This document shows positions 1 through 64,000 of a DNA stretch of 64,000 nt, in pieces. The notes below the pieces were generated by a model. It did not search any database and was not told the origin of the DNA. It saw only the letters and a list, made by a program, of their open reading frames with translations. This DNA comes from Escherichia phage ManiWeber_Bas99. Each line of letters starts with the position of its first letter. The first letter of the stretch is position 1. A program made the position numbers and the translations under genes. The stretch lies in sequence record PQ850618.1; one strand, 5' to 3'.

Positions 1-1428
1 ATGTACCAGTTGAATCCTGCTTTAAGAGAAGTCTGGAAGACGAAAGCGCGATACAAAGTCATATACGGCGGTCGTGCATCTTCCAAATCGCACGATGCCG
101 CTGGTTTTGCTATTTATTTGGCGGCAAACTTCAAATTAAAATTCCTTTGCGTTCGACAATTCCAGAACAAGATTTCTGAATCAGTATATACGCTATTAAA
201 AGACAAAATAGAGATTTCTGATTTTAAAGATGAGTTCAATTTATTAAAGAACTCTATTGAACATAAAAGAACAAAATCTGAATTCTTATTTTACGGTATC
301 GCACGCAACGTTGACGAAATCAAATCAACAGAAGGTGTTGACGTTCTTTGGCTTGAAGAAGCGCACGCGCTGACTGAAGAGCAGTGGGACATTATTGAGC
401 CGACAATTCGTAAGGAAGGGTCAGAAATATGGATCATATTTAACCCTGATGAAGAGGCTGATTTCGTCTACCAGAACTTTGTCATGCGACCGCCGAAAAA
501 TGCCATCGTTAAGAAGATTAACTGGCAGGACAATCCATTCTTGTCGCAAACAATGCTGGATGTTATCGCTGGCATGTATGAGCGCGACCCGAAAAAGGCA
601 GAACACGTTTATGGCGGAGTGCCGAAGACAGGCGGCGATAAGTCGGTCATCAACCGTGCATTCGTCAAAGCCGCGCTAAACCTCCACAAACACCCTACGC
701 TGGGATGGAGCTTGTCAGGGTCTAACCGTATAGGCTTCGACGTGGCGGACGACGGCGACGACTTAAACGCCACAGCATTTGTCACAGGCAACGTATTACG
801 TGGCATCAAGACATGGGAAGGTCTGGAAGATGAATTGCTTAAGTCCGCAAGCGGAGTCTGGAAAGACGCATTGACATTCGGCGCATCAATCACCTATGAC
901 GCCATCGGTGTTGGTGCATTTGCTGGTTCAAAATTTGATGAGCTTAATGAGTATGCAATCCATGAAAATCCAACATTCCCAAGAATCGAATTTAATGCGT
1001 TCAACGCGCAAGGTGCTGTTGATGATCCTGATGACGTTTTCCTTGAGTTACCACACGTTGAAATACTCAATAAAGACCATTTCGCAAACATAAAAGCGCA
1101 AAAATGGACTGAGATTGCCGAACGATTCAGGAAGACATATGAGTATGCGACAGGGCAGGCCGTATATCCGACTGATGAGTTGATTTCCATCGACACAGAC
1201 GGCATCCCAGAACTTGGGATTCCTGCTTGGACTGCGGAAGAGATTGAGACGTTTCTTTTTGAGATGTCAGCGCCGCGCAAAGATACGTCTGTTCTTGGTA
1301 AGTTCAAAGTTGAATCGAAAAAAGATATGGCAAAGCGTGGAGTCAAATCGCCTAACAAAGCGGACGCCGCAATCATGGCATTGATGAAACCAATTGTTGC
1401 AGCATCCGGCTTCTTCTCTAACCTTTAA
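1..1428 (+). CDS. terminase large subunit
   Basis: 475 aa; N-terminal Walker A-like GGRASSKSHD as in PBSX/terminase_6 large subunits; followed by portal and MuF-like genes. ORF starts at the window edge, so the true start may lie upstream. Confidence 0.8.
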   Translation: MYQLNPALREVWKTKARYKVIYGGRASSKSHDAAGFAIYLAANFKLKFLCVRQFQNKISESVYTLLKDKIEISDFKDEFNLLKNSIEHKRTKSEFLFYGIARNVDEIKSTEGVDVLWLEEAHALTEEQWDIIEPTIRKEGSEIWIIFNPDEEADFVYQNFVMRPPKNAIVKKINWQDNPFLSQTMLDVIAGMYERDPKKAEHVYGGVPKTGGDKSVINRAFVKAALNLHKHPTLGWSLSGSNRIGFDVADDGDDLNATAFVTGNVLRGIKTWEGLEDELLKSASGVWKDALTFGASITYDAIGVGAFAGSKFDELNEYAIHENPTFPRIEFNAFNAQGAVDDPDDVFLELPHVEILNKDHFANIKAQKWTEIAERFRKTYEYATGQAVYPTDELISIDTDGIPELGIPAWTAEEIETFLFEMSAPRKDTSVLGKFKVESKKDMAKRGVKSPNKADAAIMALMKPIVAASGFFSNL

Positions 1429-1431
1429 CAA

Positions 1432-1671
1432 CTAAAGCATTCCGTGCTGAAGGTCAAGCTTTCTTGCGGCAAACGACCTGGCACGGAATCGCTTACCCGC
1501 TCTTACTGCCTGTCGAATCTTCTTTTGCAAACACTTACGGTCAAAATCGTTGCGGTCGACGGCTTCGAGTAAATCGCGACGCAACGCACCCAGTGTCGAC
1601 TTTTCGGAGACTTCAACGCCCAGCGCGGCTGCAACATCTTTCAAAACATCGAGTTCGGTTAAAGTTCTCAT
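1432..1671 (-). CDS. hypothetical protein, basic C-terminus (79 aa)
   Basis: Minus-strand ORF overlapping the upstream gene by 4 nt (ATGA); no recognisable motif. Confidence 0.4.
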   Translation of the reverse strand: MRTLTELDVLKDVAAALGVEVSEKSTLGALRRDLLEAVDRNDFDRKCLQKKIRQAVRAGKRFRARSFAARKLDLQHGML

Positions 1672-2084
1672 TTGATAATCCCCTTGATGTCTGATTCTGC
1701 CATAAATATTGGAGTGCCGCCGCCAGGAACAATCGAGCGTGTGACCTTGTCAAACATATCGTTTTCTTCAACTTGAATACGATAAAATTTATTTTTGGAT
1801 GAAGATGGGCACAATCCCATAAATTTGCCGATGCCGCGAACGCATTCATCTTCAAAGTATACTGTTTCACCTTGAATGGAGTCGATGTCGTCTACTGGAT
1901 AGACCTTGCGACCCAATAGCCACTCATCCAAAGTCGCCTGCAAGACGTTGCGCGCATCTAAAATCCACGGGTCAATAGTAGCACCTTCATATCGCGCAGC
2001 AGTGGCCTTTGCCAGTTCTTCATATTCGCATACGTTAACGACTTCGCCGTTGTGCAAGACGACAAATACAATTGTTGTGCTCAT
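1668..2084 (-). CDS. hypothetical protein (138 aa)
   Basis: Strong SD AAAGGAG 6-7 nt upstream of ATG; own promoter-like element; opposite orientation to flanking packaging genes. Confidence 0.55.
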   Translation of the reverse strand: MSTTIVFVVLHNGEVVNVCEYEELAKATAARYEGATIDPWILDARNVLQATLDEWLLGRKVYPVDDIDSIQGETVYFEDECVRGIGKFMGLCPSSSKNKFYRIQVEENDMFDKVTRSIVPGGGTPIFMAESDIKGIIK

Positions 2085-2112
2085 TTCAATCTCCTTTCGT
2101 TTGGTTAACTAA

Positions 2113-2140
2113 AATATAACTCAAAATGATACAAAAGCAA
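2113..2140 (-). promoter_or_regulatory. sigma70-like promoter (TTGCTT-16-TATATT) for the minus-strand cassette
   Basis: Read on the reverse complement of the 2085-2213 intergenic region; sits upstream of the 1668..2084 gene. Confidence 0.4.
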
Positions 2141-2179
2141 AATATTTTATGAACTATTTATGATCACCATACATATCAT

Positions 2180-2208
2180 TTGCTTACAAACACATGAATA
2201 TTTATAAT
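2180..2208 (+). promoter_or_regulatory. sigma70-like promoter (TTGCTT-17-TATAAT) upstream of portal gene
   Basis: Hexamers TTGCTT at 2180-2185 and TATAAT at 2203-2208 with a 17-nt spacer in an AT-rich intergenic region. Confidence 0.45.
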
Positions 2209-2246
2209 ATAGATTGATTCCCTTTCACTGTCAGGTGGCGTTAACA

Positions 2247-4622
2247 ATGAAAATTCTTGGCATAAAACTCTGGGAGAAGACGCAACCAGAAGCCGAACCA
2301 GCGGAGATGCCGCCAGGCGACCCATTGGCACCGTTTGAACGCCTTGAAAGGCGCGGCAGCGGTCAACGCTGGGAAAAGACTGAAAGCAATCGACCGACCT
2401 TTAAAACGGTTGATGACTTCCCTTTATATGAGCCTGATATTAATGGCGATGGTGTTGCAATCATAAAAGGTCGTTCAGTCGATTCCGCAACAGTATCCAA
2501 AAAGGTTATGGATAATGCCTTAAAGAACATCAGTTCAGAAGGGCAAGTCAACCCATACACAGTACCTATTCAACTTCAAAACTGGTATTTGTCACAGTCA
2601 TTCATCGGCTATCAAGCTTGTGCCATCATCGCACAGCATTGGCTGGTGAACAAGGCGTGTTCCATGGTAGGCCGCGATGCGGTCCGTAAAGGTTGGGAAG
2701 TCAAATCCAGTTCTGAGTCAGAATTGTCAGTACAGGCAAGCGAACGCCTAAAGCAAATTGATAAAGAATTTAATATCAAAGAGCACTTAGTTGAAGCCGA
2801 ACGATTCAAAAATATTTTTGGTATCCGCGTCATCATATTTGATGTGCGTAGCGATGACCCAGAATATTACAGCAAGCCTTTTAACATTGATGGCGTGACA
2901 AAGGGGTCTTATAAGGGAATCATTCAGGTTGACCCTTATTGGATGATGCCGTTTCTGACGTCTGAAAACACAGCAGACCCTGCATCACAGCACTTCTATG
3001 ACCCAGAATATTGGGTAATCAGCGGACAACGTTATCATCGCAGCCACCTCATAATCTTGCGCAACGATGAGCCAGCTGATATTCTCAAGCCGACTTATAT
3101 TTACGGCGGCATTCCTCTGACTCAGCAGATTTATGAACGCATCTATGCCGCTGAACGTACCGCCAACGAAGCGCCATTGCTGGCGATGTCCAAGCGTACA
3201 ACGACGCTGCGGACCGACGTTGACAAGGCTATTGCCAATGAGCGGTCTTTTGCAGAACGTCTGATGATGTGGATCAAGTACCGCGACAACTATGCAGTCA
3301 AAGTGCTTGGCCAAAAAGAAGAGATGGACCAGTTTGACATCAACTTGTCAGACTTCGACAGCATCATCATGAACCAGTACCAGCTTGTGGCCGCAATCGC
3401 AAAAGTTCCGTCGACCAAACTGCTTGGGACTTCGCCAAAAGGCTTTAACGCCACTGGTGAATTCGAGATGGTCAGCTATCACGAAGAGTTGGAAACGTGC
3501 CAGCAGCATGACCTGACAAAAATTCTCGACCGCCATTACAAAATCCTTCTCAAATCAGAAGGGGTGGATGTCGATGTTAAGGTTGCATGGGAACCAGTTG
3601 GCTCACTTACTGCTACTCAACTTGCAGAAATCAATGATAAGCGAGCCAACACTGGCAAAACTCTTATTGATGCTGGCGTCATTTCTCCTGATGAAGAGCG
3701 CGACCGCATCAAAGACGACAAAAACAGCGGCTACAACCGTCTGCCGGAAGACGCAGCAGAAGAAACCCCAGGGATGTCTCCAGAGAATATGGCATTGCTT
3801 GGCAAGTCTGCTGGTGAAGTCCTGCAAGGTAAGGCCGATATTGAACAGGCGAAAGCTGATGTCGTTAAGATGGGCGGCCAGTTCTATAGCGAAACAGGTA
3901 TTATGCCAGAGGGTGCCGCGCGCGGTGAGTTGGCGGAAAACCCTGACAAAGCGCCTGTCGAAATCAACATGGACGATACCGATGATGAATCAAGCCATCA
4001 GGTTGATGTCCTAACGCAGTTGAAAGAAGGGCTGGAGGGTATTGCGGATTACTACCTGAAAGAAGGTCAGGATGTGGATTTTGACCCTCAAAAAGATTCA
4101 CGGTCGGTGCAACCGTCTACCCTTCCAAGCGTTAAAGGACACGTCGTCAACTTACGCCACAACGTGGGTAAAATGGACGCAGCATCATTACCTAAGATGA
4201 AGTTGCACGGAATGATTCTTGGCATTGAGAATCCGCGAAACAGCATTCGTAGAGGAAACAGCCTTGACGGTGAATGGGCCGTGAAGATGCCGCACCACTA
4301 CGGATTCATCAAGGGCACCAAGGGCGCAGACGGTGATGAAGTCGACTGCTTTGTGGGTCCAAATCTGAAGTCGCCGAAAGTCTTTATCGTGAACCAAAAC
4401 GATAACTACTCTGGCGAGTTTGATGAACACAAGTGTATGCTTGGATTCGATTCAGCAGAAGAAGCGAAAGAAGCTTATCAAGCATCATTTGGTAACGGTT
4501 GGAACGGATTCGACTCAATCCACGAATTAGATGTGAACTCATTCAAGGAGTGGTTGAAGGGTGATTGCTCTCAAGCATACGGAGCACTCAATAATCCTAC
4601 TAATTCACCGAAGCAAGGTTGA
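2247..4622 (+). CDS. portal protein with C-terminal inorganic-pyrophosphatase-like domain
   Basis: About 790 aa immediately after TerL and before the MuF-like gene, the expected portal position; ATG at 2247 preceded by AGGTGG. C-terminal ~130 aa contain HHYGFIKGTKGADGDEVDCFV and AEEAKEAYQASF, resembling the PPase motifs YPxNYGxIxxT..DGDPxDVLV and [12 protein letters not shown]. Confidence 0.7.
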   Translation: MKILGIKLWEKTQPEAEPAEMPPGDPLAPFERLERRGSGQRWEKTESNRPTFKTVDDFPLYEPDINGDGVAIIKGRSVDSATVSKKVMDNALKNISSEGQVNPYTVPIQLQNWYLSQSFIGYQACAIIAQHWLVNKACSMVGRDAVRKGWEVKSSSESELSVQASERLKQIDKEFNIKEHLVEAERFKNIFGIRVIIFDVRSDDPEYYSKPFNIDGVTKGSYKGIIQVDPYWMMPFLTSENTADPASQHFYDPEYWVISGQRYHRSHLIILRNDEPADILKPTYIYGGIPLTQQIYERIYAAERTANEAPLLAMSKRTTTLRTDVDKAIANERSFAERLMMWIKYRDNYAVKVLGQKEEMDQFDINLSDFDSIIMNQYQLVAAIAKVPSTKLLGTSPKGFNATGEFEMVSYHEELETCQQHDLTKILDRHYKILLKSEGVDVDVKVAWEPVGSLTATQLAEINDKRANTGKTLIDAGVISPDEERDRIKDDKNSGYNRLPEDAAEETPGMSPENMALLGKSAGEVLQGKADIEQAKADVVKMGGQFYSETGIMPEGAARGELAENPDKAPVEINMDDTDDESSHQVDVLTQLKEGLEGIADYYLKEGQDVDFDPQKDSRSVQPSTLPSVKGHVVNLRHNVGKMDAASLPKMKLHGMILGIENPRNSIRRGNSLDGEWAVKMPHHYGFIKGTKGADGDEVDCFVGPNLKSPKVFIVNQNDNYSGEFDEHKCMLGFDSAEEAKEAYQASFGNGWNGFDSIHELDVNSFKEWLKGDCSQAYGALNNPTNSPKQG

Positions 4623-5482: not shown

Positions 5483-6403
5483 ATGACGATACCAATCAAC
5501 ACATTCCCTCTATCTGGACAAACTCCAGTCTTGCCTGCGGTGTATGCTAATGGCTTGGCGATTGTCTCAGAATTCACTTCTGATAAAAACTTGATTGTTC
5601 CACTGAGCCCGCCGCTTGCATCGGGGTACAACTCAGTAGGTCAATTCTTTATGATTGGCAATGATGGCGATTCGACCAGCAAGCCTAATCTGACATTGTC
5701 TGTACCTAAGATGAACATCACCGACGTTCAAACTGGCTTGACTGCATCAACAATCACCATTGCTTTTGGAGAAGCAGTGATTATAGGAATGGAGTCTGGA
5801 GGGTCCAAGAATGCTGTCGCCGTTAAGGTAGTCAAATCCAGCGACAACCAATACACTTTACCAGCTGCGACGGCTTCCGTTCTCGGCGGCGTCAAAATAG
5901 GAAGCGGAATAAGCGTCGCAGGTGACGGTACAATTAGCGTCACTCAATACTCATTGCCGATTGCGTCAGCATCTACTTTAGGCGGCGTAAAGGTCGGTAC
6001 AACTCTATCAATTGATGGTTCCGGTGTGCTTAACGCAGCGGCAAGCACCGTCCAGAATGCCACGAACAGTGTTAGCAATCCTCCAACCACTTTGGTTAAT
6101 CTGGCAACATTAAACCTTCCTGCAGGCAAGTGGCTGGTCACGGCAAGCCAATTGACCGTTGCAACAGCAGGCGTTCAAGCGAATACCGGAATTACAGTCA
6201 AATTGTCAACAAGCAATTCAGATATTACGGATGATGCATTTACCATGTCAGCTGGCATTCGGGCTGCAGGTCGTTTCGGCGGCAACATCCCAACAAAAGT
6301 AATTACTCTTGCCGCGCCTGGTAATGTGTATTTAAACTATCAGTGCACCGACGCGTTGACATCTACCGTTTACGGACAGATCACCGCAATTAAGCTGAAC
6401 TAA
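5483..6403 (+). CDS. virion protein with tandem LGGVK(I/V)G repeats (fiber-like)
   Basis: ATG at 5483 with GAGGT SD; two repeats ASVLGGVKIGSGISVAGDGTISV and ASTLGGVKVGTTLSIDGSGVLNA; Gly/Thr/Ser-rich. Confidence 0.45.
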   Translation: MTIPINTFPLSGQTPVLPAVYANGLAIVSEFTSDKNLIVPLSPPLASGYNSVGQFFMIGNDGDSTSKPNLTLSVPKMNITDVQTGLTASTITIAFGEAVIIGMESGGSKNAVAVKVVKSSDNQYTLPAATASVLGGVKIGSGISVAGDGTISVTQYSLPIASASTLGGVKVGTTLSIDGSGVLNAAASTVQNATNSVSNPPTTLVNLATLNLPAGKWLVTASQLTVATAGVQANTGITVKLSTSNSDITDDAFTMSAGIRAAGRFGGNIPTKVITLAAPGNVYLNYQCTDALTSTVYGQITAIKLN

Positions 6404-6589
6404 AGAGGAAGTTATGCAAAAGATTATTCAGTCACGTTATGTTAAAGTGCGAAATATTAATTGCAACTCTTTGCTTTCTTGGAAATGGGCTGTTTATGAC
6501 TCGATGTTGATTGGCGTTTTAGTGGCAGGAGTGCTATTTAATATTCACTGAATTCATCGGCAAAGGATTGCCGAGAGTTTTATACGTAT

Positions 6590-6860
6590 AATGACGTATC
6601 ATCCGTATCAAGTAAGTTGTTGTTTTCAAAAGAATCTTACGGATGATACGGATGATACGCGTTGCCGCCGTACTATATAGGAATTCAAATAAATTAATTT
6701 AAAATTATATATCTAATTTAATTTTATTTTTTTATAAACTCTTATATGTGAAAAGTATCCGTATCATCCGTATCATCCGTATCACACCAGTGATAGCGCG
6801 GCTTATACACCGATACGGATAAAAATACGCCTCATTTTATCCGTATCATCCGTATCACAC
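6590..6860. repeat. iteron-like repeat element A
   Basis: Units of CATCCGTATCA in both orientations (6594-6610 forward, 6639-6660 reverse, 6756-6785 forward triple, 6811-6820 reverse, 6839-6858 forward) around an AT-rich core carrying GAATTC; homologous to the element at 58.7 kb. Confidence 0.6.
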
Positions 6861-6914
6861 TAATAAAGGCGCGGCTATATCGGTTGTTATACATATTCAA
6901 ACCATAATTATTGT

Positions 6915-6943
6915 TTGCCTAAGTTTTTTTCATTAGATATAAT
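6915..6943 (+). promoter_or_regulatory. sigma70-like promoter (TTGCCT-17-TATAAT) upstream of scaffold gene
   Basis: Hexamers at 6915-6920 and 6938-6943 with a 17-nt spacer, about 25 nt upstream of the start codon. Confidence 0.4.
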
Positions 6944-6966
6944 ACACAATACTTATTTGAGGGTGG

Positions 6967-8385
6967 ATGCGAATGCAAACGGCACGCGAAATTGACAAAA
7001 ATGGATTCTTGACGATTATGGGTTGTCCGATTTCGTCATTTGGCATTTTTGATTATTCTGCTGGTCAAGTTGGTCTTGATGGTGATCCGAATCGCATCGT
7101 AAAAGTCTATCGCCCTGAGTCAGCGGTGAAAGACCCCGAAGCGATAGATTCATTCAAAAATATCCCTTTCATCGACAATCACGAAATGCTTTCTGGATTT
7201 GAAGGTGATGAGGATAACACAGCACCCGAAGAGTATGGCGTTGATGGCGTTCTAACTGGCAATGTTTATTATGACAAGCCATGGATGCGCGGCGACCTTA
7301 AAGTGTTTAGCCGTCGTCTGAAGAAGGCCATTGATTCTGGAAAGGTTGACTTGTCTTTGGGCTATGACTGTGAATTCATCATACAGTCTGGAGAGTTTGA
7401 CGGGCAGCCGTATGAAGTGGTACAGACAACTCTTCGCGGCAACCACATTGCTCTCGTGGACGTTGGTCGAGTACCAGGTGCACGGGTGCTGGATGGTCGT
7501 TGCTTTGACCATCTTTGTTTGACGACTGTAACACCATCCAACGAGGATTTAGACATGCCAAAACCGTTAAAAGGTAAAGCGCGTGATAATGCTGTTGAAC
7601 AGCTGAAATCACTGATCCCTGCGCTCGAACAATTTCTGAATGAAGAGAGCACCGAAGCGGCTCATCAGGACGAAGTTGAAGTGAAAGCAGAAGAGAAGGA
7701 TTCAACCGAAGAACGTGAAGAAGTGATGGTTGATCCAGAAGTTAAAGCAGAAGCTGAAGAAACTCCAGAAGGTGAAGAGAAGTTTGAAGTTGAAACTGAA
7801 TCTCACGCTGGCGGCGAGCTTCCGCAACTGATCAGCCAAATCGAAGCACTTATTGCAAAACTGAAAGGTGGCGCGGTAGGTGATGAAGAAGAAGTTGAAG
7901 CCGAAGTCAAAGACGAAGAAGTTGAAGTCAAGGCTGAAGATGTATCACCTTGCGACAAAGCTGAAGATGTGGTTAGCGGCCTGCAAAACAGCAACGTAAA
8001 GGGGGCTTCGGTCGAAAAAGATGACAAACCGACAAAAGCGGCGAAAGCGTCGCCAGGTCCAGCAAAAGGGGAACACTCAATGGCATCTGATTCAGCAGTT
8101 GCTGCTTTCTACGCTGATTCTGCTCGTAAGAATAGCCTCTACCAGCGCCTGTCTAAAGTTGTTGGTGCCTTTGATCATGCAACTATGGACTCCAAGTCCG
8201 TAGCGAAATATGGCGCTAAAAAGTTAGGCTTGAAGTGCGTTGATGGTGCTGAGTTTGACGTGGTGGATAATTATCTGCGCGGCGTTGAACACGGTCAAAA
8301 ACAGCGTGTAGTCGCAAAACAAAAGGCCGCTGCGGATTCTGCAGCGACTGACGAAGCATTTGAAGCTTGGTTGAAAGGGGAATAA
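6967..8385 (+). CDS. scaffolding / prohead core protein
   Basis: 472 aa; N-terminal region resembles DUF2213-type phage head proteins (from memory, unverified); central acidic Glu/Lys/Val repeats typical of scaffold proteins; lies upstream of the capsid gene. Confidence 0.5.
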   Translation: MRMQTAREIDKNGFLTIMGCPISSFGIFDYSAGQVGLDGDPNRIVKVYRPESAVKDPEAIDSFKNIPFIDNHEMLSGFEGDEDNTAPEEYGVDGVLTGNVYYDKPWMRGDLKVFSRRLKKAIDSGKVDLSLGYDCEFIIQSGEFDGQPYEVVQTTLRGNHIALVDVGRVPGARVLDGRCFDHLCLTTVTPSNEDLDMPKPLKGKARDNAVEQLKSLIPALEQFLNEESTEAAHQDEVEVKAEEKDSTEEREEVMVDPEVKAEAEETPEGEEKFEVETESHAGGELPQLISQIEALIAKLKGGAVGDEEEVEAEVKDEEVEVKAEDVSPCDKAEDVVSGLQNSNVKGASVEKDDKPTKAAKASPGPAKGEHSMASDSAVAAFYADSARKNSLYQRLSKVVGAFDHATMDSKSVAKYGAKKLGLKCVDGAEFDVVDNYLRGVEHGQKQRVVAKQKAAADSAATDEAFEAWLKGE

Positions 8386-8387
8386 AC

Positions 8388-9005
8388 ATGACTTTCCAAA
8401 CTAGTGTAGGCCGTCAATATACAACTGGCTTTCCTGGCGACATCGTTCGCGACGGCCCACAGCGTGGGAAGCCAGGCCGAATTGCCAACGCTAACGAAGG
8501 CGCAAACGTAAACGCCATCAGCCGTGTGTTCGGTTTTAAGACTGACGTATCCTTAATGGGTACTGGTCAAACCAAAACTTTGGGCGCGCAGGACTTTGAA
8601 GTTGAGCTGGGCGGCACTAACTACTACGGCATCCTCGGCAATAGCAAGCGTTACGCGCTGTATGGCAACTCTACTGGTCCTTTGGGTGCCAGCATGGTCC
8701 TGCCTCAATATAGCGAAGGCGAGTTCTATGATATGTGCACGGGCCTCGTAGTTGAAGTATTCAACCCAAGCACCAGTCCGCAGACGCTTAACTATGGCGA
8801 CCTGCTTGCTTATGTACCTAAAGGCATTTCCAGCGGTAACAACCCGAACAACTTGCCTATTGGTGCAATTATCGCCTATACTGGCTCATTGCCAACTGGC
8901 ATGGTTGCCATCCCAGGCGGTATTGTGATTGACCCGACGACTATTGCCCTTTCCGGCCCAAGCGTCCAGTCTTCCACTTATACCATTGTACAATTGACTC
9001 GTTAA
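8388..9005 (+). CDS. head structural protein (decoration/auxiliary candidate)
   Basis: 205 aa between the scaffold and capsid genes; Gly-rich. Confidence 0.45.
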   Translation: MTFQTSVGRQYTTGFPGDIVRDGPQRGKPGRIANANEGANVNAISRVFGFKTDVSLMGTGQTKTLGAQDFEVELGGTNYYGILGNSKRYALYGNSTGPLGASMVLPQYSEGEFYDMCTGLVVEVFNPSTSPQTLNYGDLLAYVPKGISSGNNPNNLPIGAIIAYTGSLPTGMVAIPGGIVIDPTTIALSGPSVQSSTYTIVQLTR

Positions 9006-57724: not shown

Positions 57725-58173
57725 TGGGTAACAAGCTTATCGCCGCTGGTTGGGCCATACCGAAGTGGGCTCATCGTGCGCACTACTTTGATGAAGGAGA
57801 AGTGCAAAGCCTTTGCGGTCGCGCAACGTATTTCGGTGATGAGCGCGTCAGCGGCGATTACATTGACTCGCTTTTAGGTAAAGGTGATTGCAAGAAATGT
57901 CAGGATATATTAAGAGATATTCTGACGCAAAAAGGATTGCTTGAGCTTGATGAGTCGGAGGAAGTAATAGAGCTTAAGCTTGAAGCCAATCACCTTATTA
58001 ATATGTTCAAGAATTATTACTTAACGAATATGCGCTCAAAGATGCGTGAGGAAGTAATAAAAGAGGTGCTCACTTACAATCCGTTAAGGATGAATAAAAC
58101 TAAACTGAAGAAGTTTAATGCAATGGTAAGAAAGGAATTTAGACGGCTTGGAGTGAAGAATTTTATATTTTAA
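57721..58173 (+). CDS. hypothetical protein
   Basis: 150 aa; last gene of the rightward early operon, followed by a terminator. Confidence 0.45.
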   Translation: MMGNKLIAAGWAIPKWAHRAHYFDEGEVQSLCGRATYFGDERVSGDYIDSLLGKGDCKKCQDILRDILTQKGLLELDESEEVIELKLEANHLINMFKNYYLTNMRSKMREEVIKEVLTYNPLRMNKTKLKKFNAMVRKEFRRLGVKNFIF

Positions 58174-58190
58174 TTATGATTAATGTTAAG

Positions 58191-58214
58191 AGGGCCAATC
58201 GGCCCTTTTTATTT
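58191..58214 (+). terminator. rho-independent terminator
   Basis: AGGGCC-AATC-GGCCCT hairpin followed by TTTTATTT. Confidence 0.6.
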
Positions 58215-58710
58215 GCCTGTGTAATGGGAGGCTTTTGTGGTTATTTACGATTCAAGGCTGTAATTTAAGAGAGCGAAAATATTATAATAATTTATCAAGA
58301 TTATTGCATATTGTGGCAATCAACGTTTATACGTATTTATGACAGTTTAATCCACTAAATAATACGGATAGAACAGTGAGGAAAATACAGCGGTGTATTT
58401 TAGTGTAAATATTGAATCAAAAATAAATAATTATGGTGCTATTATATACGCAGATTGTTTGTAATTTATAGGATATTTTATCGTGGAGTATTGGCTAACG
58501 GTGCGTTAGCCGTGGGTCTTGGTGCTTGTGGTGTTGATGCTCAGAATTTTAATAATGTTTTTAGTTTTAGTAATCGTAGTCAATGATGATACGTATAAGA
58601 AAATGAGAGTCACCCCTTCACAGGATATTGTACCGTGGCCCTGTGGCGCGCCGCGCCTGGGATTGCTGGTATACACTGGTGCTATTTTGCCGCGAAGGCA
58701 GTCATTCATA

Positions 58711-58952
58711 CGTATCATGACGTATCATTGGGCTATTGATTTATAAGGAAAAATACGCTGATACGGATGATACGGATGCAAACATAATATATATAGAATT
58801 CCAGAAAATTAATTAACTCCATTTTGAATTAATTTAAATTAATTTTTTTCTACATCCTCATACTTATACTAAACTTATATTTATACGTATTATCCGTAAG
58901 ATATAAGTAAAAACAAAGACTTGCGGCAATACGGATGATACGTCATGATACG
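58711..58952. repeat. iteron-like repeat element B
   Basis: CGTATCATGACGTATCA (58711-58727), GATACGGATGATACGGATG (58759-58778), AT-rich core with GAATTC, TTATCCGTAAG (58889-58899), ATACGGATGATACGTCATGATACG (58929-58952); same units and core as the element at 6.6 kb. Confidence 0.6.
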
Positions 58953-59166
58953 CTTCAACCAGCCAGCAGCGGCTAAGTCATTGATTTGCATAGCAAGCGG
59001 CGAAAGGGATGGATTTCTTTTATACGTATCAAACAGTACACCACGCACCACGGTCCGTTATCCATTCAGCAATATGATTTGTGTACGTTTATAGCCATAA
59101 TGAACATCAATCTGCACTTGAATATAATGTTCATCCATTGTATAATTCACACTATTAATTTGCACT

Positions 59167-59655
59167 ATGGGATTTTGCACTATGAGTCAAGATTATGTAG
59201 CGATGCCTGAAGACTTTGAAGACCCGCGATTTGCAGAGCACAATCAGGCTTTATTCGATGAGTTCATTGACCTTGTTATTCAGGGCCATGACATGCGCGC
59301 AGCTTTTGCACTAGTATTTGGAATGGAAGTTGCAACGGATAACTACACTGGCCAGCGAATCCTTTGCACGCAACGCAATCCATACTACAAGATGCGCTTC
59401 AAAAAGCGTATGGAAGAGATGCCACTCAAGGATTTGTGGAGCGTAAAAGGTGCAATTCACAATTTGGTTAAGCTTGTGCGTGATCCAGAAGTCGCAGCGT
59501 CAGCCAAGCTTAATGCTATTCGTGAACTGAATATCATCTACGGCATCACGATGATTGATGAAAACGGCAATAGTAAAATGGGCCGTTCCATGGACGATTT
59601 CTACAAGGATTTTGGAGAGGCGGCCAAAGAAGGTGAGCAATTCTCCCGCCACTAG
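59167..59655 (+). CDS. hypothetical protein
   Basis: 162 aa (alternative ATG at 59182); both candidate starts are immediately preceded by a copy of the TTTGCACTAT motif. Confidence 0.45.
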   Translation: MGFCTMSQDYVAMPEDFEDPRFAEHNQALFDEFIDLVIQGHDMRAAFALVFGMEVATDNYTGQRILCTQRNPYYKMRFKKRMEEMPLKDLWSVKGAIHNLVKLVRDPEVAASAKLNAIRELNIIYGITMIDENGNSKMGRSMDDFYKDFGEAAKEGEQFSRH

Positions 59656-59666
59656 CCAATTTGCAC

Positions 59667-59708
59667 TATAAAACGGCCCTAGAACACATCTTCTCCACTT
59701 CTAGGGCC
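59667..59708 (-). terminator. hairpin terminator candidate (10-bp stem GGCCCTAGAA/TTCTAGGGCC)
   Basis: Perfect 10-bp inverted repeat with a 14-nt loop between convergent genes; U-rich tract on the minus strand. Confidence 0.35.
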
Positions 59709-59769
59709 ATCGGTAATACGACGGGGAAGGTTACAACCATAAACGCGTTAGAAAGTGTATTATTATAAG

Positions 59770-60033
59770 TCATCTTTTAGTCACTTTACGTAACAATTTA
59801 CGACCTTCAGCCGTCCAATCGAACGACTCCACCAGCAGATTCGCACTATAACCTAAGATGATGCGCCCTTTCTCGTTATCGACCCGCCAACAAGTCTCGA
59901 ATAGCATTCGATTTGCACTATTAACTATCGCCGCAACGCGCGTAGGGTAAACGCAATTTGCACTATGGTCATAAAGGGATAAGGTGCGACCACTTCCGAT
60001 GGACAACGTAGCGATGAGAATGAGCGTATTCAT
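59770..60033 (-). CDS. hypothetical protein
   Basis: 87 aa; contains three in-frame SAN tripeptides encoded by the antisense of the repeated motif. Confidence 0.4.
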   Translation of the reverse strand: MNTLILIATLSIGSGRTLSLYDHSANCVYPTRVAAIVNSANRMLFETCWRVDNEKGRIILGYSANLLVESFDWTAEGRKLLRKVTKR

Positions 60034-60083
60034 AAGCCACCAATTTGCACTATGAAAAGCGACCCCGAAGGGCCGCCATTCGA

Positions 60084-60710
60084 TTAGATAATCTGGAAGG
60101 TGTAGGACTTGTTGCCGAACTCGAAGTTCAAGCGCCCAGCTTCCTTAAGCTTCATGCGGAAGCGAATGTGCTTGCTATCCGGTAATCCCAGCGCGGCGAA
60201 CGCTACGCGGACCGATTTGAACTCGCCTACACCCTCGACCATGACACCGTTACGGGTAAGACGCTTTTGCGCCACTTCCTTATTATCCCAGCTTTTTGCA
60301 ATACCTTCGCTATTCGAACGGCGATGGGAAGGAGTTCCATTTTGCACTACGCAATTTGCACTATCGTTTAAACCGCTCTTAACGAAGGCTTCATATTCTT
60401 CGTCGGTCATCGCGTCGAGTTCTTCCTGGGTCGGCTCAGCCTTTTTAACGACCGCACGCGCCTTATGCGTTTTTACATCGCTGGACACTTCCTCGCGCGA
60501 CTTCGCGTCTGGGATGGGCGATTCGTTGGACGGCTCATCTAGCGCGTTTAAGGACTCGATTAACGCGATGACGCGAGTCTCAGCGGTCCGGCGGTCCGAA
60601 AATTTCTTAATCGGCTTCGAACCGGAATTTGCATTATAAAATGCAACGAGGTCGGCGGTCTTAGTTGCGATAACGTCGCCGCTAGTCGAGAAACGATTTA
60701 AGCTAACCAT
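60084..60710 (-). CDS. hypothetical acidic protein
   Basis: 208 aa; SD AGGAG upstream of ATG; carries the motif as DSANCVVQ. Confidence 0.5.
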   Translation of the reverse strand: MVSLNRFSTSGDVIATKTADLVAFYNANSGSKPIKKFSDRRTAETRVIALIESLNALDEPSNESPIPDAKSREEVSSDVKTHKARAVVKKAEPTQEELDAMTDEEYEAFVKSGLNDSANCVVQNGTPSHRRSNSEGIAKSWDNKEVAQKRLTRNGVMVEGVGEFKSVRVAFAALGLPDSKHIRFRMKLKEAGRLNFEFGNKSYTFQII

Positions 60711-60790
60711 AATAAACTCCTATTTGTTAGGGCGCTAGGCGCGAAAGAATTTTATTAAAGCGCCGCGCACGACGCTCTAAAAATCCTCTC

Positions 60791-61075
60791 TTACGCTTCG
60801 ACGAGGGAGAAGGTCTCAAATTCTTCTTCGCCCATAACGAGTAAGATATTACCGATTTCGACCGCTTCGAAGAAATATCCGTTAACGTTTACTTCGAAGG
60901 CTTCGCGGTCCGATTCCGGTAGCGCCGCGTAAAGTTTAAAAGCCTCGGCGACCGTTACCCCACCCGCCTCGATAGTTTGGCCTACGTTCGCGGCGTAGAC
61001 TTCGGATAAAATTTGTTTTACGCCGTAGTTCTCGACGATAGCGTTACGAATAGAAGAAACGTTAAGAATAGCCAT
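60791..61075 (-). CDS. small protein, paralog family member 1
   Basis: 94 aa; N-terminus MAILNVSSIRN and internal VNVNGYFFEAVEIG parallel the 61710 gene; conserved CAACTAGGAG upstream. Confidence 0.5.
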   Translation of the reverse strand: MAILNVSSIRNAIVENYGVKQILSEVYAANVGQTIEAGGVTVAEAFKLYAALPESDREAFEVNVNGYFFEAVEIGNILLVMGEEEFETFSLVEA

Positions 61076-61299
61076 TTTAAACTCCTAGTTGGGAGAGGCG
61101 TTAACGACCTATTCGTTAACTCATCCCGTCCCGATATGAGTACATTATAATATAGTGTAGAAAAAAGTAAAGCACTTTTTCGATAAAAATGCGATAAATT
61201 ATTTTATCTTTTTTCTTTACTTCTTCGTACACTCGCGTATACTTGTTTATATCGAGACGGGCGATGGCCCTTTCTTCTACTAGCATCGGGAGCTTTATT

Positions 61300-61602
61300 A
61301 TGACTACTTTAATCTCTTCCATCCTTACTTACGACGAAGACCGCTTAACCGTTCGCTCTCTTATCGCCGCCGTTAACGCGGAACTAGAATCTAGCGCCAT
61401 TAAGGTCCGCGCGGTCGCCTTCATCGGCCTTTCCTTCGACGATATGAAGTATGCCGAACGTAGCGCCATCCGCTTCGCGAAGACCGACGACGAAGCCGTT
61501 ACCCTTATCGAGACGGTTACGCCGCGCGGCGAAGCGTTAATTATCGTCGAGTATATCGACGTAGAAGGCGATAAATCTTATAAACATTTTATCGCAGAAT
61601 AA
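61300..61602 (+). CDS. small protein, paralog family member 2
   Basis: 100 aa from ATG 61300 (GGGAG SD); MTTLISSIL... with conserved upstream TTTACTTCTTCGTACACT box. Confidence 0.5.
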   Translation: MTTLISSILTYDEDRLTVRSLIAAVNAELESSAIKVRAVAFIGLSFDDMKYAERSAIRFAKTDDEAVTLIETVTPRGEALIIVEYIDVEGDKSYKHFIAE

Positions 61603-61709
61603 CGAAAAAGTGCTTTACTTCTTCGTACACTAAGACTATAATGTTTTATATCGAGAGGGGATGAGGTAGCGAATAGGTCGCTGCCCTCCCGACCAACTAG
61701 GAGATTATT

Positions 61710-62000
61710 ATGATTACTTTAGCCGCTATCCGTTCCGCTCGCGTCGAGACTTCCGAAAACTCTAACGTATTTGGCGAAACCTTAGAGAGCGTTTATCTCT
61801 CTAACGTAGACGCAACTATCGAATCCATTTATGAGCCGATCAACTTCCTCGACCTTTACAAGTATCGCGATGAGGACATCGTGTCTTGCCGCGTAACGAT
61901 CAACGGCTTCGTCTATACGATTACCGAAATCGGCGGCGAATATCTCGCGGTCCCGCAACTCGGCGGCGAAGTAACTTATTTTAAAATCGTCTCCTTATAA
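61710..62000 (+). CDS. small protein, paralog family member 3
   Basis: 96 aa; MITLAAIRS...VTINGFVYTITEIGGEYLAV; conserved upstream box and CAACTAGGAG SD. Confidence 0.5.
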   Translation: MITLAAIRSARVETSENSNVFGETLESVYLSNVDATIESIYEPINFLDLYKYRDEDIVSCRVTINGFVYTITEIGGEYLAVPQLGGEVTYFKIVSL

Positions 62001-62019
62001 TACCCTTCCGTTACTAATA

Positions 62020-62045
62020 GGCCGCGCTTAGTCGCGGCTTTTCTT
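62020..62045 (+). terminator. rho-independent terminator
   Basis: GCCGCG-CTTAGT-CGCGGC hairpin followed by TTTTCTT. Confidence 0.55.
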
Positions 62046-62642
62046 CGCCCCTATCTCGGTGCGCTCCTACGCGAAAACTCCTTTATCCTTACCTTCGTCG
62101 TCGCATAATCTTCGTCGAGATGCTCCTTAGTTCGCATAACAGGTATTACGTTAAATGGAGAACATCGCGTAAGTCGTTGTTTTATATAGACACCTATATC
62201 GGACCGTTAGCGAGGGTCGCGTAAGTCGTTGTTTTATAAAGGCGCAAAACTTTCCCTTCGTTCCGAACTAAAACGAGGAATATGCCGACCCTTCGCCCGA
62301 AAATAGTACGCATGCGATATTACCGACATCTAGAATAATCCCTCCCGATATTATTACGCGCTCAATCATTAGCTTTCGAATCATTATGCTGCATACTATT
62401 ATGCGCCAAATCATTAGCCTTCGAATTGTAACGCTGGAAACTGTAACGTCGATTGATTATTGCGTTCGTGTGGTTTTTAGGACATGGGTCTTTTGGTGCG
62501 TTTTGCTACTTGATGGAATTTGCAGTACACTAATCAAAATACGACACATTTGGTCCACTAACTTTTCAAAGAAAAAGTCCTAGACAGTACCGTACTATTT
62601 TGTACCCACAGGAAATTTGCCGTACACTCCTGCGCGGCAGGC

Positions 62643-62670
62643 AAAAATAAAGGGCCGCACTAAGCGACCC
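62643..62670 (-). terminator. rho-independent terminator
   Basis: Minus-strand GGGTCGC-TTAGT-GCGGCCC hairpin followed by TTTATTTTT, downstream of the 62707 gene. Confidence 0.55.
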
Positions 62671-62706
62671 ACAACCCACGATTCACGGTTAAATCAGCAA
62701 CACCCA

Positions 62707-63087
62707 CTATTCACTCTTATGGGCATCACCAAAGCCATCAGCAATCTGGCTGATCAACGACTCAATGGACACGGTTTTACCAATTGATCGAGCGGTAATA
62801 GCAAGCATATTATCAATCAAACCACGATTGACTTCACATGTTCCAGGCTTTGACTCATCTTTAGGACCACCAAAAAGCTGGTCGCGCAGACTTTCAAGAG
62901 AACGCTCAATATTTTCCAACTTCTCTTCTAAATCGGATTGGCGACGTAAAACCCACGTCAAGTCACGGTTGCCAACTTCCAATCCATCAGAATAGCAAGG
63001 TGGAGCGTCAATTTTGATGCTGGAACCAAAAGCAATGCCGCTGCCTTTAGTATATGTGTGGCTAATAGAATCATTTTTATTTGACAT
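62707..63087 (-). CDS. hypothetical protein
   Basis: About 126 aa from the internal ATG at 63087 (the track ORF extends to 63153); coiled-coil-like centre. Confidence 0.45.
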   Translation of the reverse strand: MSNKNDSISHTYTKGSGIAFGSSIKIDAPPCYSDGLEVGNRDLTWVLRRQSDLEEKLENIERSLESLRDQLFGGPKDESKPGTCEVNRGLIDNMLAITARSIGKTVSIESLISQIADGFGDAHKSE

Positions 63088-63266
63088 ATCATTACCTTTA
63101 ATATTTGGGTGATTAACAATAACTATAATAAAGCCGCATAGCGCGGCATTCAAATCGGTTTGTTAATTGTAACGATTGAATTTACTTATCCAACCAATCA
63201 ATAAGCGCAATCATGGCTACAACAAATACTGCACTTATTGCTAATATGATCAAAAACATCACGAAA

Positions 63267-63503
63267 TCAACGTTCATCAATCGATACCAATTGTGCAGGG
63301 TCGCCGGATACAGTTGCGCCGATGATACCCATCTGAGAGAAAAATTCTGAATAAACTTCCTTCCAGTACTTGCGCGCAGCTTTCTGGGCTTGACCTTTTC
63401 GCTTGTAGCTTTTACCTTGAAAGATGAAACGGTCGCTTGTCGCGCGATACTCCACCACGCCTTCCAGCCATTGCAAGAATGCTGCTGATTCATTTTTATT
63501 CAT
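63267..63503 (-). CDS. hypothetical basic protein
   Basis: 78 aa ORF. Confidence 0.45.
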   Translation of the reverse strand: MNKNESAAFLQWLEGVVEYRATSDRFIFQGKSYKRKGQAQKAARKYWKEVYSEFFSQMGIIGATVSGDPAQLVSIDER

Positions 63504-63510
63504 GTTAACC

Positions 63511-63906
63511 TCAATATTTTAATAAGAAAGCACCCAACCAACTTTCCTCAATCTCGCGGCCAGTAGCCACACGGTCGGTCTTGGCTATGGGTCTGGATTC
63601 GCCGCAGGGCAATCCGTATTGTAGTTGTGTACTATTGCCAATTCTCACCATGACCTTTCCATCAGGGTCGATATAAGCGCGACAACCCATGATTTCGAGT
63701 CGTTGTAGACACTGGCGAATCGTTTTCAGCCTTTCACCGGACCGGATTGAGCGCGGTCGCGACCGCTGACCGTTCTTGTTCACTGTCCGCTTAACGACCG
63801 GAATATCATTGCTGCGCTGCGACTTGGGTCGATAATAGGCTTCTTCGCCAGGAGTCGCACCTGGCGTCAATTCGCGCTTAAGCGCCTTTTCAATATCGAT
63901 GATCAT
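63511..63906 (-). CDS. hypothetical basic protein
   Basis: 131 aa, Arg/Lys-rich ORF. Confidence 0.45.
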   Translation of the reverse strand: MIIDIEKALKRELTPGATPGEEAYYRPKSQRSNDIPVVKRTVNKNGQRSRPRSIRSGERLKTIRQCLQRLEIMGCRAYIDPDGKVMVRIGNSTQLQYGLPCGESRPIAKTDRVATGREIEESWLGAFLLKY

Positions 63907-64000
63907 GATTCATGCCGCTGCAGCGTAAACAATTGCATAAGCAATTCCAAACAGCGCGGCAATACATACCGTGCCCCAAAATGCAAAGCGTCGTGACTCT

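Follow-up and report, generated by a model that had tools for sequence, protein, structure and literature searches.

We find that one terminal region of a Wifcevirus genome, that of a 68-kb Escherichia coli myovirus related to Pbunavirus, carries an array of a short asymmetric word that is repeated in a single orientation, and we conclude that this array is most likely a protein-docking signal for the cutting and packaging of viral DNA, not a series of promoters. More specifically, with a probability of about 40%, the words can be predicted to be cis-acting recognition sites of the small terminase subunit (TerS) that function in cutting and packaging and also in the autoregulation of terS. The array is polar, lies at a defined position with respect to the mapped genome ends and a bona fide terS gene, is conserved, and recurs in another genus. 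The binder would be TerS, whose binding would direct cutting and packaging while holding the expression of its own gene in check.

All coordinates below are those of the window, i.e., the whole 64,000-nucleotide stretch of DNA that was analyzed. The setting of the array is the long terminal repeat of the genome:

58821..62493, + strand: direct terminal repeat (DTR), 3.67 kb; position 58821 is the physical left end

The first base of the WFC, WFH, Mansfield and Ro157lw records, four independent records in agreement, corresponds to position 58821. Position 62493 corresponds both to the end of the WFH record and to the end of the DTR in the Mansfield record, in which a repeat of 3,673 bp is annotated from PhageTerm (PMC6753283); the WFC record runs 81 bp further, ending at 62574. 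PS44 was discarded as a DTR reference because its record ends give no clean repeat. The whole array lies inside the DTR, where it brackets terS, and its first copy is found 323 bp inside the left end.

The array comprises 11 good copies and one weak copy within 1.5 kb (59144-60637), all on the + strand. The exact word, AATTTGCACTAT, is present five times, at 59157, 59658, 59955, 60042 and 60353, always on the + strand, against an expectation of 0.02 from shuffled sequences, and + strand copies with at most two mismatches are located at 59144, 59172, 59838, 59910, 60339 and 60626. These counts bear out the claim of the initial annotation that many same-orientation copies are packed into 1.5 kb, and its remark that no reverse-orientation copy lies nearby extends to the entire DTR, in which no minus-strand copy was found. 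The start coordinates given in that annotation were all 2 nt too high, marking TTTGCACTAT, and its list lacked two copies, a degenerate one at 59144 and a weak one at 59304. The PWM derived from the copies scores them at 16-26 bits, the next best site on either strand of the 64-kb window reaching 10.7 bits; information is limited to 10-12 positions, with the flanks remaining below 0.4 bit bar one position at 0.7. The copy-to-copy spacings (13, 15, 132, 354, 180, 72, 45, 87, 297, 14, and 273 bp) are irregular and show no helical phasing.

The upstream part of the array is superimposed on terS and its control region:

59118..59146, + strand: sigma-70-type terS promoter (TTGAAT, 17 nt, TATAAT; 10/12 in a consensus scan), with the predicted start at ~59153
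59144..59155, + strand: copy 1, degenerate (AATTCACACTAT), over the -10 hexamer and the predicted start; 16.0 bits; identical in 20/20 genomes
59157..59168, + strand: copy 2 (AATTTGCACTAT), in the terS 5′UTR, its final AT opening an upstream in-frame ATG; identical in 20/20 genomes
59172..59183, + strand: copy 3 (ATTTTGCACTAT), its final AT opening the annotated terS start codon; at most one change in 20/20 genomes
59182..59655, + strand: terS, small terminase subunit; alternative start at 59167; third-codon-position excess 4/2/50
59304..59313, + strand: weak copy (TTTTGCACTA) inside terS, within the invariant stretch 59287-59321
59658..59669, + strand: copy 4, 2 nt past the terS stop; 25.8 bits; abuts the hairpin 59675-59708

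The terS product matches the 'Small terminase' entry PDB 7UXE (phmmer, E = 7e-34; ~41% identity), which is the TerS decamer of E217 (PMC9611059). Copies 1-3 are arranged in tandem over the -10 hexamer of terS, its transcription start, its 5′UTR/RBS and its start codon. Both promoter hexamers are invariant in 20 genomes, the spacer being variable at 4 of its 17 positions, and ATTCACAC of copy 1 is also kept in the terS 5′UTR of Kyle. The hairpin next to copy 4 reads as a terminator of leftward transcription, and a terminator is annotated there in WFC.

Further downstream, the array continues through two genes of the opposite strand and the gap between them:

59770..60033, - strand: ORF87, a genuine gene whose product has an N terminus resembling a signal peptide; codon-position pattern 4/5/23
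59829..59836, + strand: lone Chi site in reverse complement (CCACCAGC), located 1 nt before copy 5; kept in Mansfield and WFC
59838..59849, + strand: copy 5 (GATTCGCACTAT), in ORF87; read Ser-Ala-Asn
59910..59921, + strand: copy 6 (GATTTGCACTAT), in ORF87; position kept in Kyle and PA1 (Asn-Ser-Ala-Asn)
59955..59966, + strand: copy 7, in ORF87; exact word; identical in 20/20 genomes
60042..60053, + strand: copy 8, intergenic; 26.0 bits; abuts the ORF208 terminator hairpin 60059-60076
60084..60710, - strand: ORF208, phrog_4730, a protein conserved family-wide; codon pattern 5/7/75
60339..60364, + strand: copies 9 and 10, in tandem within the ORF208 variable linker and dispensable
60626..60637, + strand: copy 11 (AATTTGCATTAT), a weak one that the conserved ORF208 peptide FYNA(N/H)S dictates in part

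ORF87 is homologous to gp002 of Kyle (BLASTP, E = 2e-12), and the codon-position pattern indicates that 6 of the 11 main copies are antisense within truly coding minus-strand genes. The initial annotation had each copy within these genes encode Ser-Ala-Asn; this is correct for four of the six, the exceptions being 60626, which is read as Asn-Ala-Asn, and 60339, which is read in the other frame as Val-Gln-Asn. A protein-level cause, namely Ser-Ala-Asn repeats, was rejected because the word is also found in intergenic DNA, in the + strand gene and in a second frame of the coding minus-strand genes. The same distribution supports the earlier suggestion that selection acts on the word at the DNA level, as do the roughly fivefold lower diversity of the eight upstream copies compared to their surroundings among 20 genomes and the recurrence of the array, with site turnover, in another genus; on these comparative grounds, we regard DNA-level selection as supported. 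An RNA-level motif fits neither strand and was rejected because the copies occur in sense, antisense and untranscribed contexts; a search of positions 58000-64000 with Rfam covariance models gave no match up to E = 1.

Within Wifcevirus, nucleotide diversity in the eight upstream copies is 0.009, compared to 0.046 in the surroundings (pi over 20 genomes; permutation p = 0.004). When all 11 copies are pooled with no exclusions, the same 20 genomes yield no overall signal (pi 0.051 vs. 0.047 for the flanks), and an earlier 13-genome test from which ECML-117 had been removed was set aside as dependent on a post hoc exclusion. Conservation is limited to the eight upstream copies; the pair 60339/60353 is missing in 4/20 Wifcevirus genomes and 60626 is missing in 2/20. 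Across 1.9 kb, invariant stretches of 30 bp or more number only three, and every one of them holds a copy; copy 8, which lies inside the stretch 60029-60064, is kept in position in all three array-bearing lineages.

Two Pantoea phages of the genus Kylevirus also possess co-oriented GCACTA arrays, with 14 copies in Kyle and 13 in PA1, all on the terS strand. The Kylevirus arrays have the same core as that of the window, TTYGCACTA, and occupy the equivalent place, beginning within terS and extending as far as the 3′ end of the ORF208 homolog. Applied to Kyle, the PWM derived from the window recovers 9 array sites and only 4 weak matches in the other 68 kb. Some of the array sites are kept in position between the window and Kyle or PA1, and about half are lineage-specific; the TerS of Kyle is 43% identical to that of Wifcevirus. 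In Wifcevirus, Kylevirus and Myosmarvirus, the terS start lies 357-388 bp in from the DTR boundary next to terS, the distance being inferred for PA1. No comparable array rises above the shuffle null in PS44 (Pbunavirus), in MyoSmar, or in eight lineages from metagenomes that share this TerS family; PS44 has just three AACACTCA copies upstream of terS. An array universal to this TerS family was accordingly rejected, and the array is therefore not a general requirement of the terminase family. Helix 3 of the TerS DNA-binding domain has Gln, Arg or Lys in the three array-bearing lineages and Glu in 10 of 10 array-less lineages, a change that may reflect shared ancestry alone.

A related element lies just beyond the opposite end of the repeat:

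62517..62536, + strand: right-boundary element AATTTGCAGTACACTAATCA, starting 23 nt past the DTR end, with GTACACT at +32
62614..62628, + strand: second boundary-element copy (AATTTGCCGTACACT)

The first of these is the best non-array match to the PWM in the window. It is composed of AATTTGCA followed by GTACACT, the former being a prefix common to the array word; Kyle has a near-identical element, likewise offset by 23 nt. GTACACT itself occurs at +32/+33 past the right boundary in Mansfield, Kyle and MyoSmar, i.e., in three genera (at +32 in MyoSmar), and a second GTACACT past the boundary is present also in Kyle, PA1 and MyoSmar. The two 'half-motifs' reported previously are thus real, with positions of 62517 and 62614, and the one at 62517 belongs to the boundary element. 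A GTACACT-like candidate element at the left boundary, CTACAT, was dropped because it is not conserved within Wifcevirus. GTACACT is found, moreover, in the spacers of two sigma-70-like promoters in the DTR, an arrangement that is kept in PA1.

Taking these observations together, we propose that TerS rings would load on the co-oriented TTYGCACTAT words, starting 323 bp inside the left end and continuing for ~900 bp through and past terS. With asymmetric sites that all point one way, the complex could assemble with a defined polarity, and TerL would then be placed for cutting at the boundaries of the repeat; the element on the right, which starts 23 nt past the cut, carries the array-type AATTTGCA prefix together with GTACACT. 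Occupancy of the three tandem copies over the -10 hexamer, start site, RBS and start codon would allow the same protein to repress its own gene. A packaging site had been listed as an alternative in the initial annotation, and it is the reading that the context, with the DTR end and terS, favors: in the manner of pac- and cosB-type sites, the array is situated at terS (59144-59669) and near a physical end, and it is repeated and conserved among relatives. In phage lambda, the cosB sites R3, R2 and R1, which are bound by gpNu1, lie beside cosN and the Nu1 gene. The likeness consists of repeated TerS sites on the gene-proximal side of the cut, just before the small-terminase gene; however, cosB has three 16-bp sites in ~120 bp, an IHF bend and cohesive ends, whereas the array has more sites over a tenfold longer region, direct-repeat ends, and no IHF site that could be recognized in our analysis.

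A precedent for the proposed coupling of packaging and autoregulation is offered by the pac region of SPP1, where the direct repeats extend over the terS promoters, RBS and start and the terminase represses its own production (PMC4737164, PMC6316719). The pac sites of SPP1 and SF6 (pacL-pacC-pacR, boxes a, b, and c) resemble the array in consisting of direct repeats at the terS promoter, RBS and start near the packaging cut, and the TerS proteins of these phages belong to the same ring-of-HTH architecture class as that of Wifcevirus. Unlike these pac sites, the array is built from one word in 11-14 co-oriented copies over 0.9-1.5 kb that run through neighbor genes of the opposite strand. Furthermore, the array phage makes exact 3.7-kb DTRs, with the cut 323 bp from the first copy, in contrast to the headful-permuted ends of SPP1 and SF6. 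E217, a Pbunavirus, has a homologous TerS and a terS gene that is likewise apart from terL, and overexpression of its TerS lowers phage yield (PMC9611059), so that dosage matters. Several observations count against the TerS reading. E217 TerS has no known DNA site and did not bind DNA appreciably in vitro (PMC9611059); the DNA-binding domain of SF6 TerS ignores the SPP1 box repeats in vitro; the irregular, unphased spacing is a poor fit to simple wrapping around one ring; and the three ORF208 copies are dispensable in natural isolates. The lineages that have this TerS family but no comparable array, and the lack of an overall conservation signal for the 11 pooled copies, weigh on the same side.

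The presence of GTACACT in the two DTR promoter spacers also argues against packaging and suits a transcription regulator. The best-surviving alternative, albeit an unlikely one, is that the words form an operator or silencing array for a different phage DNA-binding regulator that shuts off terS and the small DTR genes over 900 bp. The placement of three copies exactly over the -10 hexamer, start site, RBS and ATG of terS, the two strongest copies abutting terminators of the leftward operon, the conservation of the GTACACT-containing spacers in PA1, and the many small DTR proteins without an assignable function are all compatible with such a regulator. Nevertheless, at least eight sites are away from any promoter and in coding sequence, which is unusual for operators; repression needs no strict co-orientation over 0.9-1.5 kb; and a regulator offers no account of why the repeat boundary should be involved. 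Nor did the nearby genes provide a candidate with a recognizable DNA-binding domain. For ORF208, considered as a possible binder, AlphaFold gave an unusable model from the single sequence (pLDDT 38.6), and the homolog search for structure modeling returned near-identical sequences only.

The location of the array near the end of the genome, within the terminal repeat, recalls the injection-stop (iss) region of T5, where eight DnaA boxes in the left terminal repeat are proposed to pause DNA entry (10.1101/866236). By analogy, a host or phage protein could halt or pace entry at the array, or guard or process the end in conjunction with Chi; we consider such a device improbable. Both systems present a conserved array of short protein-binding words in a long terminal repeat near a genome end, and, in support of such a device, co-oriented reverse-complement Chi sites amid or near the array (10 in Kyle, 7 in PA1 and 4 in MyoSmar) are oriented for RecBCD entering from the left end, the single one in the window lying 1 nt from copy 5. 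However, the iss region is a large untranslated region with DnaA boxes and many palindromes, whereas the array lies mostly in coding DNA and uses a different word. The identity of this word with a DnaA box was rejected: TTWTNCACA has no match in the DTR and two in the whole window, the copies match it at 6-8 of 9 positions, and the CACT-A-T of every TTYGCACTA-type copy departs from CACA. The word is also unlike Chi, of which the array in the window contains only one complement (59829).

Short asymmetric words that function in an orientation-dependent manner and in co-oriented sets are familiar as signals to moving motors, namely Chi for RecBCD, KOPS for FtsK, and lambda cosQ for terminase. The array, too, is a co-oriented set of an asymmetric word, and in the sister genus it is co-oriented with genuine Chi complements. 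It could, although we give this a low probability, be a polar signal that tells the translocating terminase that it has entered the repeat and primes the cut at the boundary; if true, this would explain how precise 3.7-kb direct terminal repeats arise. The word bears no relation in sequence to Chi (GCTGGTGG) or KOPS (GGGNAGGG), and we know of no translocase that reads it.

Iterons and polar fork traps, too, typically consist of co-oriented direct repeats of an asymmetric word, and phages with DTRs have to duplicate the repeat in the course of concatemer processing. Still, a replication element in the terminal repeat, be it an origin with iterons or a Tus/Ter-like polar fork barrier, is quite improbable: most of the sites are in genes over 0.9-1.5 kb, no AT-rich unwinding element or initiator gene was seen beside them, and the replication genes are 10-25 kb distant from the array. 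GC skew in the window profile tracks transcription only and is uninformative in this respect. Even less credence is due to the notion of sites for a strand-specific nicking enzyme that introduces localized single-strand interruptions into virion DNA, despite the confinement of every copy of a specific 10-12 bp word to one strand and the precedent of T5-like phages, which have multiple nicks in one strand only (PMC10644984). A nickase or HNH gene was not recognized in the array region, eleven nicks per 1.5 kb of one strand would be unusually dense, and fragmentation of the DNA of array phages has not been reported.

The promoter reading of the initial annotation, under which the array would serve a phage single-subunit RNA polymerase or a phage sigma factor, is unsupported and hardly credible: CACTAT(A/G) does resemble the -6 to +1 core of T7/SP6/K11 promoters, and G or A comes next after several copies, but the reading fails because the annotations of the complete Bas98 (Wifcevirus) and Kyle (Kylevirus) genomes contain no RNA polymerase gene and 6 of the 11 main copies point against the real genes that contain them. 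Apart from the common core, T7/SP6/K11 promoters are ~23 bp long, sit ahead of genes that are transcribed in the same direction and depend on a phage polymerase, none of which applies to the array, where conserved information covers only 10-12 bp and not a ~23-bp block from -17 to +6. The word is, moreover, confined to a single 1.5-kb cluster and absent from every other intergenic region of the window, and terS is already served by its conserved canonical sigma-70 promoter. The related Pbunavirus 14-1 relies on the host RNA polymerase with other motifs, sigma-70-like and CTGGG (PMC10914365). No matches to a sigma-54 -24/-12 arrangement were found. According to the annotation, the DNA polymerase and virion proteins are the largest products; a 912-aa ORF matches Pfam DUF2612 and sits in the baseplate/tail gene block.

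To our knowledge, the recognition and cutting of DNA by phages with long exact DTRs are poorly understood. The array provides a concrete, conserved and easily synthesized candidate target for a decameric TerS of the E217 type in E. coli phages, some of which grow on K-12 derivatives in the BASEL collection. Together with the boundary element at its fixed offset from the right cut, it makes the question of recognition directly testable. If confirmed, TerS recognition of the array would establish the packaging signal used by a phage family to which phages for Pseudomonas therapy also belong, with possible uses in packageable vectors or in the control of terS dosage.

Five exact copies of AATTTGCACTAT occur in the 64-kb window (59157, 59658, 59955, 60042, and 60353), all on the + strand, against 0.02 expected from dinucleotide-preserving shuffles, and allowing up to two mismatches adds six copies (59144, 59172, 59838, 59910, 60339, and 60626), again all on the + strand. 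This comparison with a shuffled expectation bears out the single-orientation cluster reported in the initial annotation, in which each copy start was placed 2 nt too high. A weaker copy, TTTTGCACTA, lies at 59304. In de novo word counts, no oriented words of the region are more over-represented than TTTGCACTA and its sub-words, and TTTGCACTA has no reverse-complement copy there. A position weight matrix (PWM) derived from the 11 copies gives them 16-26 bits, compared with 10.7 for the best other site on either strand of the window. Copy spacing is irregular, and helical phasing is absent. The array is laid out as follows:

59118-59146, +, sigma-70-type promoter of the small terminase gene terS (TTGAAT, 17 nt, TATAAT)
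59144, 59157, and 59172, +, copies 1-3, over the -10 hexamer, predicted start, ribosome-binding site, and both candidate terS start codons
59658 and 60042, +, the two top-scoring copies, each adjoining a hairpin readable as an intrinsic terminator of leftward transcription
within ORF87 (59770-60033, -), three copies, antisense to the gene
within ORF208 (60084-60710, -), three copies, two of them in a lineage-specific linker insertion

Among 20 genomes, both hexamers of the terS promoter are invariant and the spacer is variable. The proposal that every copy within the minus-strand genes encodes Ser-Ala-Asn holds for four of the six copies and fails for the other two.

The + strand gene heading the array encodes a genuine small terminase (TerS), matching PDB 7UXE (E = 7e-34), the decameric TerS of Pbunavirus E217 (PMC9611059). 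Substitutions among isolates fall overwhelmingly at third codon positions in terS (50/56), ORF87 (23/32), and ORF208 (75/87), indicating that all three are genuine genes; a small annotated ORF at 58945-59094 shows no coding-type substitution pattern among isolates. A homologue of ORF87 is present in Pantoea phage Kyle, and ORF208 is conserved family-wide. At least two allelic forms of ORF208 exist among Wifcevirus isolates (60300-60400 and 60600-60650), with ECML-117, Ro157lw, RCIP0319, and Eco4M-7 carrying a divergent linker without two motif copies, which looks like recombinational mosaicism inside a conserved gene. The large terminase gene terL occupies 1-1428, and terS lies within the terminal repeat ~8.7 kb away, with tail-fibre and small genes between. 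In Pbunavirus PS44 the gap is only 1.3 kb, so the '58 kb apart' given for E217 comes from the point at which that record was opened.

The region shares 93-96% identity with the Wifcevirus phages WFC, WFH, Mansfield, ECML-117, and BASEL Bas98-101; the group comprises E. coli myoviruses of 66-72 kb that are distant relatives of Pbunavirus (PMC11990801, PMC6563267). Mansfield has a PhageTerm-predicted direct terminal repeat (DTR) of 3,673 bp (PMC6753283). The first base of the WFC, WFH, Mansfield, and Ro157lw records corresponds to 58821 in all four, and both the DTR of Mansfield and the record of WFH end at 62493; the array thus falls within the DTR, and its first copy begins 323 bp in from the physical left end. 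In the WFC GenBank record the right DTR end is set at 62574, 81 bp further; given that 62493 is backed by the Mansfield PhageTerm result, the end of the WFH record, and conservation across genera of the sequence after it, the 3,784-bp repeat of WFC is probably too long. The ~300 bp from the left end to the terS promoter (58821-59117) are the most variable of the region (26% variable columns), and their length is nonetheless fixed (334-336 bp in 19 genomes). A tandem family of 9-bp units, GATACGGAT / ATCCGTATC, occupies 6595-6850, upstream of the head protease gene in an intergenic region of 400 bp, and, in opposite orientation, flanks the left genome end (58711-58776, ~45-60 bp outside; 58930-58950, ~110 bp inside). 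The non-coding 650-bp stretch 62040-62700 is also repeat-dense, with AATCATTAGC(C/T)TTCGAAT-type repeats and GTAACGCTGGAAACTGTAACG just within the right DTR boundary (62366-62430); AATCATTAGCCTTC near this boundary is kept in Kyle (L021 3560-3600).

Beyond the right boundary, AATTTGCAGTACACTAATCA at 62517 lies 23 nt past the DTR, and in Kyle AATTTCACAGTACACTAATCA likewise stands 23 nt past the DTR, which is exactly defined there at 3,603 bp. Serratia phage MyoSmar, which is without the array, has TGGTGCGATTT...GTACACTAA directly past its PhageTerm boundary, sharing TGGTGCG with TGGTGCGTTTT of the window and GTACACT at +32 in both, which supports 62493 as the true boundary and shows the element to be a family-wide feature adjoining the terminus. 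A second GTACACT copy lies further out in each lineage. The element's prefix AATTTGCA is that of the array in Wifcevirus, and the Kylevirus prefix AATTTCAC / AAATTCAC resembles the degenerate array copy located in the terS 5'UTR. GTACACT also occurs in the spacers of two sigma-70-like promoters of DTR + strand genes (61216 and 61614), an arrangement kept in Pantoea phage PA1 that could be an operator:

61216-61243 and 61614-61642, +, and PA1 (L052) ~8670-8710, promoter module CTTTACTTCTTC-GTACACT-(4-5 nt)-TATA(C/A)T-GTTT(T)ATATCGAG

TerS homologues are found in Kylevirus, Pbunavirus, Myosmarvirus, and other lineages. In Wifcevirus, Kyle, and MyoSmar, terS lies just within the DTR, its start 357-388 bp from the nearer boundary, and it is similarly placed at the inferred left end of PA1. 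There are 14 GCACTA copies at 477-1478 in Kyle, whose TerS is 43% identical, and 13 at 6271-7146 in PA1 (TerS 60% identical to that of Kyle), with none on the opposite strand in either stretch. The window-derived PWM finds nine sites in the Kyle array stretch and only four weak hits elsewhere in its 69.5-kb unique genome. In each of the three lineages the array extends from terS as far as the 3' end of the ORF208 homologue. Of the copies in the cross-genus alignment, which is only ~52% identical, two align across all three lineages and several across two, and about half are lineage-specific; hence the array persists although its individual sites come and go. Nothing exceeded the shuffle null in PS44, MyoSmar, or eight metagenomic lineages.

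Co-oriented arrays of the Chi complement CCACCAGC, oriented so that RecBCD coming in from the left end recognises them and with no opposite copy within the repeat region, occupy the terS-proximal terminal repeat of three relatives and suggest end protection or stimulated repeat-mediated recombination; the E. coli phage has a single Chi complement (59829):

Kyle (L021) 255-4518, 10 copies
PA1 (L052) 5861-7433, 7 copies
MyoSmar (L007) 6653-6993, 4 copies

Separately, the heptamer GCGCGGC is scattered through coding sequence across the window (~40 on +, e.g., 1623, 2351, 4677 ... 63954; 29 on -, 670 ... 62021; ~8 expected in total), with no evident tie to gene starts; near terS in Pbunavirus-like loci, the top oriented 8-mers include the related words TCGCGGCA and CGCGGCAA.

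Among 13 genomes, motif columns were 2.5-7x less diverse than flanks only once ECML-117 was removed; across 20 genomes without exclusions, conservation of the 11 copies does not exceed that of the sequence around them (pi 0.051 vs 0.047), because 60339 and 60353 are missing in the four isolates with the other ORF208-linker allele and 60626 in two. These three copies are, as judged from isolate sequences, dispensable. The eight upstream copies (59144-60042) vary at 5/96 columns, compared with 195/1167 around them (pi 0.009 vs 0.046; block-permutation p = 0.004), and within 58821-60720 just three stretches of 30 bp or more are invariant (59141-59172, 59287-59321, and 60029-60064), each of them holding a copy. 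The functional core is thus placed at ~59144-60053.

The best-supported reading, to which we assign a probability of roughly 0.4, is that the array is a candidate set of cis-acting binding sites linked to terminase function, whose likely partner is TerS; it might additionally act as an operator limiting terS expression. The closest precedent is the SPP1 pac site, with direct repeats across the promoters, ribosome-binding site, and start of terS, in a phage whose terminase represses its own synthesis (PMC4737164, PMC6316719); in E217, TerS dosage matters (PMC9611059). Helix 3 of the TerS DNA-binding domain carries Gln, Arg, or Lys in 3/3 array-bearing lineages and Glu in 10/10 others, a suggestive, phylogenetically confounded difference. 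Against TerS as partner, TerS proteins are notoriously non-specific in vitro (PMC9611059), the array is missing from most lineages having TerS of the same family, and GTACACT in promoter spacers suits a regulator; sites for such a separate protein nevertheless seem rather unlikely. A device for DNA entry or end protection, comparable to the T5 iss, would be improbable, a replication element highly so, and nick sites more doubtful still. Least credible are the T7/SP6-type promoters of the initial annotation, which fail each criterion that could be tested: the complete genomes of relatives have no annotated RNA polymerase gene, the conserved block is merely 10-12 bp, the word is limited to a single stretch, more than half of the copies are antisense to real genes, a conserved sigma-70 promoter already serves terS, and the relative Pbunavirus 14-1 relies on host polymerase, with sigma-70-like and CTGGG-type promoters across its genome (PMC10914365). 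DnaA boxes and a sigma-54 arrangement are both absent from the array, which matches no Rfam family. The accessible Wifcevirus papers that were covered do not mention it, and among the matches listed in a full-text search for the 9-mer and "phage", all were unrelated.

If TerS is indeed the partner, this would be a pac-like array of TerS sites that is unusually long, strictly polar, and gene-embedded, and it would belong to a phage that makes exact long terminal repeats.
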